DNA from: Escherichia coli
GTDB taxonomy: Bacteria; Pseudomonadota; Gammaproteobacteria; Enterobacterales; Enterobacteriaceae
Strand: one strand, 5' to 3'
Length of the DNA: 64,000 bases
NCBI RefSeq assembly: GCF_024502345.1
Contig: NZ_JALDNN010000001.1
The notes under the pieces were generated by a model. That model worked only from the letters and a program-made list of their open reading frames with translations. It searched no databases and had not been told where the DNA came from. Shown piece by piece: positions 11,971 through 35,158 of this stretch. Position numbers and translations under genes: made by a program. Each line of letters begins with the position of its first letter. The stretch's first letter is position 1.

Positions 11971-11987
11971 TTGTATTGTGATCGGTA

Positions 11988-12165
<178 letters not shown>

Positions 12166-14635: not shown

Positions 14636-14728
14636 CGTAGGTCGGATAAGACGCCCCGGCGTCGCATCCGACAATGTGCAGGCGTTGATGCCGGATGCGG
14701 TGCAAGCACCTTATCCGGCCTACAGACC
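14636..14728. repeat. REP pair between phnD and phnE
   Basis: gtcggataagacg...gcgtcgcatccgac and gccggatgcgg...ccttatccggcc palindromic units. Confidence 0.75.
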
Positions 14729-19961: not shown

Positions 19962-20050
<89 letters not shown>

Positions 20051-22858: not shown

Positions 22859-23617
22859 ATGAGCCTGACCCTCACGCTCACCGGCACCGGCGGCGCACAG
22901 GGCGTTCCGGCATGGGGCTGCGAGTGTGCGGCCTGCGCCAGAGCGCGGCGCTCGCCGCAGTATCGCCGCCAGCCGTGCAGCGGCGTAGTAAAGTTTAACG
23001 ACGCAATCACCCTGATCGACGCCGGGCTGCACGATCTCGCCGATCGCTGGTCGCCCGGTTCGTTCCAGCAGTTTTTGCTGACGCACTACCATATGGATCA
23101 CGTGCAGGGGCTATTCCCGCTGCGCTGGGGCGTGGGCGATCCGATCCCGGTTTACGGCCCACCGGATGAACAGGGCTGCGACGATCTGTTTAAACATCCG
23201 GGCCTGCTTGATTTTAGCCACACGGTGGAACCGTTTGTAGTGTTTGATTTGCAGGGATTGCAGGTCACGCCGCTGCCGCTCAACCACTCAAAACTGACCT
23301 TCGGTTATCTGCTGGAAACGGCACACAGCCGGGTGGCGTGGCTGTCTGACACCGCTGGCTTGCCGGAAAAAACGCTGAAATTTTTACGCAATAATCAGCC
23401 GCAGGTAATGGTGATTGATTGCAGCCACCCGCCGCGCGAGGATGCGCCACGTAATCACTGTGATTTAAACACCGTGCTTGCGCTGAATCAGGTTATCCGC
23501 TCGCCGCGCGTGGTTCTGACCCATATCAGCCACCAGTTTGATGCGTGGCTGATGGAAAACGCACTGCCGTCGGGGTTTGAGGCGGGGTTTGATGGGATGG
23601 AGATTGGGGTGGCGTGA
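22859..23617 (+). CDS. phnP: Metallo-beta-lactamase-fold phosphodiesterase
   Basis: HxHxDH motif ([10 protein letters not shown]); 252 aa. Confidence 0.92.
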
Positions 23618-23640
23618 TGAGAGGGAATGTGCGCGCTGGC

Positions 23641-23740
23641 CCCCTCACCCTAACCCTCTCCCCAGAGGGGCGAGGGGACCGATTGTGCTCGATATTGAAT
23701 ATTACGCTGGTTTTCTCCCTCTCCCCATTGGGGTGAGGGG
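23641..23740. repeat. Pair of GC-rich imperfect palindromes downstream of phnP
   Basis: ccctctcccc-aga-ggggcgagggg and ccctctcccc-att-ggggtgagggg, flanked by cccctcaccc / gggtgagggg. Confidence 0.5.
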
Positions 23741-23763
23741 CGATGCCTGCTCCATACCCAACC

Positions 23764-24093
23764 TCATCGCCCATACTCATCTTCCATTCTCCGCTCTTCA
23801 TCTTCTAGCTGCCGACGCTCCTGATCAAGCTGGCGCTGGCGATCGTCCAGCTGCCTGCGGCGATCTTCAAACTGGCGGCGGCGGTCGTCATATTGTCTGC
23901 GCCGATCGTCGCTCACTTCACGCTGCCAGCCGTCGTCGCGCGAATCTTCATAGTCTCGCCCACGGTCAGGGTTATAAGCGTCGTTAATCGCCTGCTGAAT
24001 ATTGCCAATGGTGTCGTCGATAATATCGGCCTGGGCCGGTACGGTGGTCAGCGTGAGCAGGGTGAATAAAAGAAATAGCGGAAAGCGTTTCAT
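23764..24093 (-). CDS. yjdP: Secreted low-complexity Asp/Arg-rich protein
   Basis: 109-aa ORF with signal peptide then DDRRRQ-type charged repeats. Confidence 0.8.
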   Translation of the reverse strand: MKRFPLFLLFTLLTLTTVPAQADIIDDTIGNIQQAINDAYNPDRGRDYEDSRDDGWQREVSDDRRRQYDDRRRQFEDRRRQLDDRQRQLDQERRQLEDEERRMEDEYGR

Positions 24094-24161
24094 TAGCCAA
24101 CCTCAAAAAGAAACTCTATCCACATTAGTCATTACTCATCCATGCAAGTAGTGGATGAATC

Positions 24162-24479
24162 TCAATTTCTCCGCTGCTCTATTGCCGTAATCGCTTCCAC
24201 GCTTTGTTGATGACGACCGCCTTCGTACTGTGCGCCCAGCCACGCATCCACAATCATTTTTGCCAGTTCGAGGCCAACCACTCGTGAACCAAAAGCCAGT
24301 GCAACTTCACTGGCGTAATGCGGATAATCAGTGCGCTCTGACGACCTGGTTTCTTTATCAATCCCCTCACTCATTGACCATGAATAAAAGGCTGGCACAG
24401 CAACACAGAATCCTGCGGTGCCAGCGACATGACCGCCCATTGCTCCGGTACGTTTTTTAATAAAAAACACCGGTTGCAT
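24162..24479 (-). pseudogene. rpiB: Decayed remnant of ribose-5-phosphate isomerase B
   Basis: 105-codon ORF whose C-terminus (FGSRVVGLELAKMIVDAWLGAQYEGGRHQQ.VEAITAIEQRRN) and SSERTDYPHYAS segment match RpiB as I recall it (about 149 aa), with about 44 codons missing internally and a diverged N-terminus. Confidence 0.5.
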
Positions 24480-24731
24480 TGATTAATTGTGCTCAGTATT
24501 TGCCGAAGTACAATATATATAATAAATATATAAAACACCTCATATTATTTACAGAGATAATAAATTCGCGTACTTTTCCCTCTTCAGCACAAATGCCTAA
24601 TAAAATGGATCGTTCCGCTCACACTTCCACTTATTAAAGTCGCAATTTCCCAATTATGATAACGCCAGCTTTAAATGACGTATTTTGCATGGATTACATA
24701 TTTACGACATAAATGATAAATGGAGATTTAT

Positions 24732-34894: not shown

Positions 34895-35158
34895 GTAGGC
34901 CTGATAAGACGCGTTAAGCGTCGCATCAGGCGTTGATGTCGGATGCGGCGTAAACGCCTTATCCGACCTACAAAATCACGCTAAATCAGGCTATTGCGCT
35001 GTCTGGCGTAGGCCTGATAAGACGCGGCAAGCGTCGCATCAGGCATTGATGTCGGATGCGGCGTAAACGCCTTATCCGACCTACAAAATCACGCTAAATC
35101 AGGCTATTGCGCTGTCTGACGTAGGCCTGATAAGACGCACCAGCGTCGCATCAGGCAT
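34895..35158. repeat. Tandem BIME/REP array (two ~114-bp units plus a partial third)
   Basis: Near-identical units taggcctgataagacgc...gcgtcgcatcaggc...gtcggatgcggcgtaaacgccttatccgacctacaaaatcacgctaaatcaggctattgcgctgtctg. Confidence 0.85.

Follow-up and report, generated by a model that had tools for sequence, protein, structure and literature searches.

Between the convergent genes phnP and yjdP of Escherichia coli lie two conspicuous GC-rich palindromes, and we asked what kind of element they represent and whether they have a function at this place. The DNA analyzed is a stretch of 64 kb, referred to as the window, in which the open reading frame list and the annotation show the two genes converging on a gap of 146 nt (Table 1). 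For this gap, the MG1655 RefSeq record contains no annotated feature, repeats included, and searching Rfam covariance models yielded no match within 23000–24500 at E-values up to 1.

An earlier note, made from the letters of the window, had described two near-identical imperfect palindromes here. The repeat finder recovered them as 24-nt elements at 23654–23677 (CCCTCTCCCCAGAGGGGCGAGGGG) and 23717–23740 (CCCTCTCCCCATTGGGGTGAGGGG), forming a direct repeat 63 nt apart with 88% identity, and additionally detected a long-range inverted repeat pairing 23641–23653 with 23728–23740 (92% complementary). The pattern CCCTCTCCCCNNNGGGGNGAGGGG, allowing for up to three mismatches, matched the two palindrome sites alone within the window, each on both strands, whereas 100 dinucleotide-preserving shuffles gave a mean of 0.00 matches, confirming the observation. 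Its details needed some correction: the distance of 100 bp from phnP holds for palindrome 2 (about 100 nt), whereas palindrome 1 begins 37 nt past the phnP stop codon; what was taken for the left flank, CCCCTCACCC (23641–23650), constitutes block 3 of the first repeat unit, and what was taken for the right flank, GGGTGAGGGG, is nothing but the 3′ arm of palindrome 2.

Our analysis identifies the structure as an inverted pair of BoxC repeats, comprising one complete type A unit and one type B unit lacking 12 nt, without a dedicated function at this site, a reading to which we assign a probability of about 0.9. The observation stands; the element was known before under four names, and two catalogues list this particular copy.

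Table 1 Features of the phnP–yjdP gap (window coordinates), alleles of the gap in other strains and RNA 3′ ends at sister units (MG1655 coordinates).
Feature	Position	Strand	Description or basis
phnP, last gene of the phn operon (context)	22859–23617	+	ORF list, MG1655 annotation
Outer flank of type A unit	23630–23640		TGCGCGCTGGC; resembles block-3-side flank at other paired loci (weak, qualitative)
Whole composite, inverted [A(−), B(+)] BoxC pair	23641–23740		40-nt spacer
Unit 1, complete BoxC/PIT/TMECO type A ('A mm') unit	23641–23676	−	Published-consensus regex match; catalogues
Unit 1, block 3 complement	23641–23650		Plus-strand layout
Unit 1, loop TAA	23651–23653		Plus-strand layout
Unit 1, block 2 complement	23654–23663		Plus-strand layout
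Unit 1, loop	23664–23666		Plus-strand layout
Unit 1, block 1 complement	23667–23676		Plus-strand layout
Palindrome 1	23654–23677		Block 1/block 2 hairpin of type A unit
Family-conserved tail of type A unit	23677–23690		GACCGATTGTGCTC; likeness to MG1655 loci
Family-conserved head of type B unit	23706–23716	+	GCTGGTTTTCT; likeness to other MG1655 type B units
Unit 2 (palindrome 2), read as truncated type B unit	23717–23740	+	Block 1 CCCTCTCCCC, loop ATT, one G block GGGGTGAGGGG
yjdP, encodes DDRRRQL repeat protein (convergent neighbor, context)	23764–24093	−	ORF list, annotations
Allele, 158-nt gap			Complete pair (FXCREC043)
Allele, 146-nt gap			Window and MG1655
Allele, 95-nt gap			Nord1; A and B fused into one five-block palindrome, fold −38.1 kcal/mol
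Allele, 76-nt gap			O157:H7; 70-nt deletion between AGGGGCGA microhomologies
Allele, 41-nt gap			Strain 33E
Allele, 34-nt gap			E2348/69; only GGGTGAGGGG remains
Allele, 27-nt gap			AZ162, MS20653; no block remains
Sister 3′ end	3781065	+	lldD primary end, TMECO 17; type A tail
Sister 3′ end	164636	+	Downstream of hrpB, TMECO 2; type A tail
Sister 3′ end	4231270	−	Degenerate A unit; type A tail
Sister 3′ end	632098	+	After cstA, degenerate A unit; type A tail
Sister 3′ end	3959467	−	Downstream of ppiC, TMECO 20

The first palindrome belongs to a catalogued type A unit

On the minus strand, the segment beginning 24 nt past the phnP stop codon reads CCCTCGCCCC-TCT-GGGGAGAGGG-TTA-GGGTGAGGGG, comprising three blocks, of which the first two form palindrome 1. 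Entry no. 22 of the TMECO catalogue, CCCTCGCCCCTCTGGGGAGAGGGTTAGGGTGAGGGG of type 'A mm' at 4,314,285–4,314,320 of MG1655, is the same sequence, base by base, as the minus strand of 23641–23676. The window aligns with the reverse complement of MG1655 (97% alignment), and the phnP coordinates convert 23641–23676 exactly to this interval. Likewise, HPGQ no. 51 of group HPG1 (midpoint 4314309; distances of 24 nt to phnP and 101 nt to yjdP) coincides with this unit. Based on the match in sequence and coordinates to the former and in location to the latter, unit 1 is a catalogued BoxC element.

In line with the HPG1 definition, unit 1 exhibits four G3+ tracts, the conserved loops and a C-rich 5′ flank, and its G-rich minus strand (23640–23663) contains the sole canonical G-quadruplex (G4) motif that a regular expression detected in the window. 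RNA folding of 23636–23684 yielded −23.2 kcal/mol for the plus strand (z −1.85) and −32.3 kcal/mol for the minus strand (z −3.85). Four further MG1655 loci show counterparts of the conserved tail behind their type A units (GACCGTTCGGCGCT, GACCGATCGAGCAC, GACTGTCTGAGCAC and GACTGACCGAGTCC).

A dispersed chromosomal family with four names

The motif was first described in the 1990s as BoxC and is identical with TMECO (Holder et al. 2015, PMC4666352); BoxC is credited to Bachellier, Clement, Hofnung et al. in that decade. Cozzuto et al. (2008, PMC2267715) give a size of 56 bp and 32 copies from the literature and found 22 members of 50 bp themselves. The PIT element (potential intrastrand triplex) of Hoyne, Edwards, Viari and Maher (2000), as summarized in PMC4666352, is BoxC rediscovered, and the putative G-quadruplex–hairpin switch HPG1/HPG2 represents the BoxC family as well (Kaplan et al. 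2016, PMC5100583). The TMECO consensus reads CCCTCNCCC-N3-6-GGGNGAGGG-N3-GGGNGAGGG, with 23 copies in MG1655 given in Table 1 of that study (PMC4666352) and 3,610 copies reported for 262 proteobacterial genomes (Holder et al.). Closely spaced elements combine one A unit (TTA loop) with one B unit (CCG loop) on opposite strands (PMC4666352; also PMC5100583); such inverted pairs occur at five MG1655 loci and are outnumbered by single units (PMC4666352). The elements are found in both orientations, more frequently upstream than downstream of ORFs, and show no association with gene class, with distance or with operon position (PMC4666352).

A blastn query with the gap, which contains the unit, was run against 5,426 complete E. 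coli genomes. All but one of them (5,425) gave matches, 77,694 places in total, and a single genome has up to 27 of them (median 16); 31 of these places were on plasmids and the rest chromosomal. Such a number of places per genome indicates a dispersed repeat rather than a locus-specific signal, and rules out uniqueness of the unit in the genome, the outcome that the earlier note had named as speaking against its reading. Together with the identity of unit 1 with TMECO no. 22 and HPGQ no. 51, it bears out that note's suggestion of a box-C-type repeat. The dispersed, multicopy, strictly intergenic and chromosomal character of BoxC is thus found here, the copy under study being intergenic. A phage search returned four weak records among 50,697, indicating no phage association.

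Scanning species-representative genomes with the consensus yielded at least 120 loci. Among the 80 loci listed, 69 belong to one genome of Mitsuaria chitosanitabida, eight to a Methylomirabilota MAG and three to Contendobacter, with no Escherichia loci among them, showing occurrence in distant phyla among the matches listed rather than providing a taxonomic census. In these distant genomes the three blocks are unchanged, and the first loop is GCTTGC in 128 of 166 copies. Close pairs in Mitsuaria have the [−,+] arrangement in 28 of 34 cases, and the spacers within pairs span 16–59 nt in MG1655 and 15–272 nt in the distant genomes. A mention of boxC in a 2026 genomic SELEX paper proved to be a false lead.

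The second palindrome as a shortened type B partner

Unit 1 comprises all three blocks of the BoxC consensus (Holder 2015) and unit 2 of the window two only, which accounts for the absence of unit 2 from both catalogues. At the equivalent position, strain FXCREC043 carries 12 extra bases and with them a complete three-block unit, CCCTCGCCCCATTGGGGAGAGGGCCGGGGTGAGGGG, with CCG as second loop, that matches the consensus regular expression on the strand opposite to unit 1. Relative to this allele, unit 2 lacks the 12 nt GGGGAGAGGGCC, comprising one G block and the CCG loop. Unit 1 with its TTA second loop (A) and the complete unit 2 allele with its CCG loop (B) on the opposite strand follow the published pairing rule. 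Based on the complete B unit of FXCREC043 and this rule, palindrome 2 is, judged by its sequence, a type B unit minus one of two tandem G-block repeats of 12-nt periodicity. Placing it as the 12-nt-deleted type B partner within an allelic series is what the present analysis adds to the catalogued unit.

Slippage of one 12-nt-periodic direct repeat against the other would have caused the loss. We infer the direction of the change, from the complete to the deleted B unit, from the architecture rather than from a tree; conversely, gene conversion with another BoxC locus as donor could have rebuilt the complete B unit in the few genomes that carry it.

The architecture of the composite resembles that of the family. 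Its outer blocks, CCCCTCACCC and GGGGTGAGGGG, constitute the long-range inverted repeat, and the same [−,+] arrangement of A and B is present at lldD-trmL in MG1655. The 40-nt spacer consists mostly of the GACCGATTGTGCTC-like A tail and a GC..GTTTTCT B head; block 1 of type B units is preceded by GTTTTCT or CTTTTCC at hrpB-mrcB, ygfF-gcvP and alx-sstT and by TTTTTCT at lldD-trmL. Including the conserved tail or head, the unit size amounts to about 50–56 nt, as in the classical BoxC description. With one G block gone and two G tracts left, unit 2 can form a hairpin only, being neither a triplex nor a G4 motif; RNA folding of 23708–23748 yielded −22.0 kcal/mol (plus) and −17.5 kcal/mol (minus). 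Folds of the whole gap gave z values of −2.3 and −2.4, modest compared with shuffles, and a larger structured RNA across the gap was rejected, as the whole-gap folds were little better than shuffled sequence.

An allelic series across strains

In the 5,426 E. coli genomes, a query with the complete B unit gave 64 records at identities of at least 99%, 98 at 95–99% and 3,134 at 80–90%. Taking the last band as the form with the 12-nt gap, and deriving allele frequencies from such bands, the complete pair is present in at most ~3% of the genomes and the 146-nt form of the window is the commonest (~55%), whereas shorter forms, with larger deletions or none of the structure, make up ~43%. The gap is preserved to 80% or more in only 3,099 of the 5,426 genomes. 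We distinguished at least eight gap-length classes, comprising those of Table 1 and one of 24 nt in E. albertii. 'Intergenic change', 'TMECO mutated' and 'palindrome effect' are published behaviors of the family (Holder et al., PMC4666352); the series at this site conforms to them, with elevated variability from strain to strain.

Outgroups were compared for the ancestral state. The phn operon is absent beside yjdP in E. albertii and E. fergusonii, and in C. rodentium phnP is absent there, with unannotated genes in its place. E. albertii alone was informative, having lost the phn operon except for ~70 nt at the 3′ end of phnP; behind this remnant is a gap of 24 nt devoid of BoxC, which aligns with the BoxC-free alleles of AZ162 and MS20653. 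Judged by this alignment, the BoxC-free state may be ancestral at this site. These alleles nevertheless keep GCGCCGGCCCC, resembling the outer flank of A units, and may for that reason be old deletions rather than virgin sites.

In the reading that we favor, the pair would be structure-prone, selfish or neutral DNA with no dedicated function at the locus. With its potential to form hairpins, cruciforms, triplexes or G4s, the pair would be especially prone to slippage and microhomology deletions, and the allelic series would follow from this. No function of the BoxC family has ever been demonstrated in the literature. However, that the three blocks are nearly identical even in very distant bacteria is hard to square with purely neutral DNA.

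Presence and absence among strains could also reflect a mobile element of the MITE type, in which the [A(−), B(+)] pair with terminal inverted repeats of ~36 nt was inserted into a gap of 24–27 nt. The alignment of AZ162 and MS20653 with E. albertii fits such an insertion, as do the inverted pairs at five MG1655 loci and in Mitsuaria and the high copy number of the same blocks in unrelated phyla. Yet no target-site duplication was apparent at the junctions compared in a non-systematic look, the spacer is highly variable in MG1655 as well as in distant genomes, single units are commoner than pairs, and the seemingly empty alleles keep the flank-like GCGCCGGCCCC. Given in addition that the repeat is nearly absent from plasmids (31 of 77,694 places) and phages (4 of 50,697) and that we know of no transposase for BoxC, insertion as a unit appears improbable.

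We regard it as similarly improbable that BoxC units are copied or moved by a putative trans-acting enzyme recognizing the three-block fold, as RAYT does for REPs. Such an enzyme would explain why the site is BoxC-free in E. albertii and some E. coli and why pairs always join both subtypes. The blocks CCCTCNCCC/GGGAGAGGG/GGGTGAGGG occur with lineage-specific loops in Mitsuaria, the Methylomirabilota MAG, Contendobacter and enterobacteria, and their presence in distant genomes in dozens of copies and in [−,+] pairs would likewise find an explanation.

Non-B DNA and protein binding

The conformational properties of BoxC suggest that the minus strand might act as a non-B DNA switch regulating transcription or replication locally, by a triplex (Holder) or by transitions between G4, hairpin and duplex (Kaplan). 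Consensus oligonucleotides of types A and B form intrastrand purine-motif triplexes in vitro, as seen by CD and NMR (PMC4666352), and oligonucleotides undergo ion-dependent changes from G4 to hairpin in vitro (PMC5100583); the singular G4 motif of unit 1 in the window and the conservation of the blocks far beyond enterobacteria would fit such a role. In vivo, however, DMS footprinting revealed no triplex protection (PMC4666352), and the duplex wins in double-stranded DNA. With neither gene class nor distance nor operon position linked to the elements (PMC4666352), and the commonest unit 2 allele having lost the very block needed for triplex or G4, we consider a switch at this locus very unlikely.

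The earlier note had also raised a protein-binding site. The three 9-nt blocks are very strongly conserved, in E. coli as well as between phyla, and the loops are free, which could indirectly point to recognition by a sequence-specific protein, be it nucleoid-associated or, as with REP/BIME, one that binds repeats. This appears very unlikely, as the TMECO and HPG1 papers (PMC4666352, PMC5100583) report no binder and many strains dispense with the site.

RNA 3′ ends and the question of a terminator

Two stable GC-rich hairpins between convergent genes call to mind a bidirectional intrinsic (Rho-independent) terminator for phnP and yjdP, each hairpin stopping the polymerase from its side, and Kaplan et al. 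(2016, PMC5100583) speculated on such a role, noting six HPG1 members between convergent pairs. The earlier note had offered the same possibility, with RNA folding and Term-seq as checks. Folding yielded stable hairpins on both strands, but a T/U run is missing behind each of them in both directions. Palindrome 2 has TTTTCT ahead of it on the plus strand, and the minus strand accordingly reads hairpin-AGAAAA. The consensus promoter and terminator scan gave nothing in 23618–23763, both of its matches being inside yjdP. At the lldD sister unit the intrinsic score of 1.32 is below the threshold of 3, PIT elements had neither promoter nor terminator activity in reporter tests (Hoyne & Maher 2002, as cited in PMC4666352), and in ~43% of genomes the structure is largely or wholly missing. 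Despite 3′ ends at sister units (see below), intrinsic termination here is therefore very unlikely, and the earlier proposal is not supported in this sense.

For Term-seq, we used the 3,110 ends listed in Supplementary file 1 of Adams et al. (2021, PMC7815308). This curated MG1655 list, covering LB and M63, has no entry for yjdP, phnP or positions 43142xx/43143xx. As phn is uninduced in these media, the missing end is a weak negative. Five sister units, in contrast, have 3′ ends located 3–11 nt past the block 1/block 2 hairpin (PMC7815308 list; Table 1). Four of the five ends have the orientation that corresponds to phnP mRNA reading its A unit. The lldD end has a Rho score of 1.49 and the entry 'significant Rho termination region: Yes', next to the low intrinsic score (PMC7815308). 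Calculated from 3,110 ends and 12-nt windows after 23–30 units on both strands, 0.19–0.24 ends would be expected, a rough value ignoring expression. The excess reports an association, not selection, as stable transcribed hairpins often hold 3′ ends.

Rho-terminated transcripts end right after stable stem-loops lacking a U tract, which protect against PNPase and RNase II (Dar & Sorek 2018), and the ends at the five sister units make a role in processing or as exonuclease stop plausible. By analogy, a passive block of 3′-to-5′ exonucleases on phn RNA by the hairpin of unit 1 is plausible: when phn is transcribed, the plus-strand RNA hairpin CCCUCUCCCC-AGA-GGGGCGAGGG would probably stop these enzymes, as a side effect. 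From the lldD and hrpB sister units, we predict a phn transcript 3′ end ~4 nt past the stem, at 23680–23681 on the plus strand (MG1655 4314280–4314281, minus). As the curated list holds no end for the gap, this RNA role is proposed here by analogy with the sister units.

A stronger version of this idea is that BoxC hairpins are selected RNA-level elements, kept to define or protect the 3′ ends of Rho-terminated mRNAs in a REP-like manner. The five sister ends against a rough expectation of 0.2, the position of the lldD end within a Rho termination region and the generally established mechanism (Dar & Sorek 2018) all point in this direction, as does the location of the unit 24 nt past the phnP stop codon in the productive orientation. 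Selection would, however, leave the use of both orientations and the preference for sites upstream of ORFs unexplained, a large fraction of strains, like E. albertii, does without the site, and no curated 3′ end falls into this gap, phn being uninduced in LB and M63. Moreover, any stable hairpin would suffice, so that the strict conservation of the third block is not accounted for. We thus regard selection for this role as possible but doubtful. In its scope, such an element would cover the phn operon and possibly yjdP.

Comparison with known systems

For annotation, the identification as a BoxC pair accounts for an eye-catching unannotated structure and guards against calling it a terminator or a small ORF. 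Beyond annotation, the results are small increments to the knowledge of the family: the reading of unit 2 as a deleted type B partner within an allelic series and the coincidence of Term-seq ends with sister units are new in the present analysis. The series at one locus cleanly shows how BoxC decays, by loss of a 12-nt block, fusion of units into one palindrome and microhomology deletions, and the Term-seq comparison points to BoxC hairpins as frequent markers of RNA 3′ ends, leading to a concrete prediction for the phn 3′ end.

Compared with BoxC, a GC-rich imperfect palindrome that is intergenic and present in tens of copies, unit 1 corresponds in full and unit 2 as a truncated copy. In the PIT/TMECO description, unit 1 is no. 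22, and the inverted pairing of A and B as well as the local instability are as published; its partner at 23717–23740 is uncatalogued and, by our reading, a 12-nt deletion derivative of type B. As HPG1, unit 1 is HPGQ no. 51 with its minus-strand G4 motif, whereas unit 2 with two G tracts cannot form a G4. The boxC of lambda nut and rrn antitermination sites, a short RNA motif in antitermination leaders, has the name alone in common and is unrelated to the BoxC repeat in sequence, location and function. Intrinsic terminators resemble the pair in having a GC-rich stem-loop downstream of a stop codon; they differ by their U tract, and the sister-unit score under threshold as well as the negative published tests set the pair apart from them.

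The closest parallel in lifestyle is provided by REP/BIME elements. Their sequence is unrelated, and the REP consensus (GCCTTATCCGGCCTAC-type arm) has 14 matches in the window, none of them in 23600–23800, so that the palindromes were rightly set apart from the window's REP/BIME units in the earlier note. REPs are also far more numerous, are served by a transposase of their own (RAYT/TnpA-REP) and are bound by known proteins, whereas to our knowledge BoxC has neither a dedicated transposase nor a binding protein. Both, however, are dispersed intergenic palindromes that often form inverted pairs and often reside in 3′ UTRs. REP hairpins are classical barriers to 3′ exonucleases, and the role that BoxC RNA would play in the phnP–yjdP gap, by analogy with its sister units, is the same.

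The phnP–yjdP neighbourhood

In both Escherichia albertii (retrieved locus L135, 1490-1680) and Escherichia fergusonii (L136), yjdP adjoins a glyoxalase-family gene that is probably the yjdN/phnB homologue, and the phnC-P operon is absent from this position. A 3'-terminal phnP remnant of ~70 nt persists in E. albertii, so the operon has been deleted there rather than having been originally missing. The phnP 3' end in the window carries a perfect direct repeat of CGGGGTTTGA, one copy of which is missing from the E. albertii remnant. YjdP itself, a DDRRRQL repeat protein (window 23764-24093), differs in size between strains and species, with lengths of 109 aa in the window, 102 aa in many other forms and, by annotation, 118 aa in AZ162, presumably reflecting altered repeat number.

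The ORFs called mechanically across the BoxC pair, including one example of 40 aa containing ...PLTLTLSPEGRGD..., are likely spurious small ORFs of the sort that such repeats generate in automatic annotation. REP-arm matches in the 64-kb window numbered 14 versus 0.35 expected, the cluster at 34895-35136 comprising five alternating REPs.

Table. Repeat features and reading frames in the window and in phage records.
Feature	Coordinates	Source or context	Detail
Direct repeat	window 23571-23592	within phnP 3' end	perfect, tandem-like; 10 nt x2, 12 nt apart
ORF spanning BoxC pair	window 23614-23736 (+)	ORF list	mechanical
ORF spanning BoxC pair	window 23526-23801 (-)	ORF list	mechanical
REP/BIME cluster	window 11985-12100	REP-arm matches
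REP/BIME cluster	window 14637-14723	REP-arm matches
REP/BIME cluster	window 19980-20024	REP-arm matches
REP/BIME cluster	window 34895-35136	REP-arm matches
REP/BIME cluster	window 45612-45688	REP-arm matches
BoxC-pair-like stretch	MG065686.1 13633-13763	Campylobacter phage record	90.7% identity, 65% of query
BoxC-pair-like stretch	MG065691.1 160360-160490	Campylobacter phage record	90.7% identity, 65% of query

BoxC units elsewhere

One 'orphan' Term-seq 3' end, at MG1655 624680 (-), position 381 of the fepB-entC locus L010 and 170 nt upstream of fepB, is strong, with a read count of 103,563. It lies 4 nt before, not after, TMECO 8, the BoxC unit of this gap, and is a misfit to the 'end after the hairpin' pattern.

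The BoxC-pair-like stretches in two Campylobacter phage records are unexpected for such phage and may be foreign DNA within the records. Among the matches listed for distant genomes (L013-L132), the same three BoxC blocks are multicopy in Mitsuaria chitosanitabida, a Methylomirabilota MAG and a Contendobacter MAG, all remote from enterobacteria. Among these same listed matches, loop 1 is lineage-specific, with GCTTGC in 128/166 copies, loop 2 is variable, and close pairs, spaced 15-272 nt apart, adopt the inverted [-,+] orientation in 28 of 34 cases.
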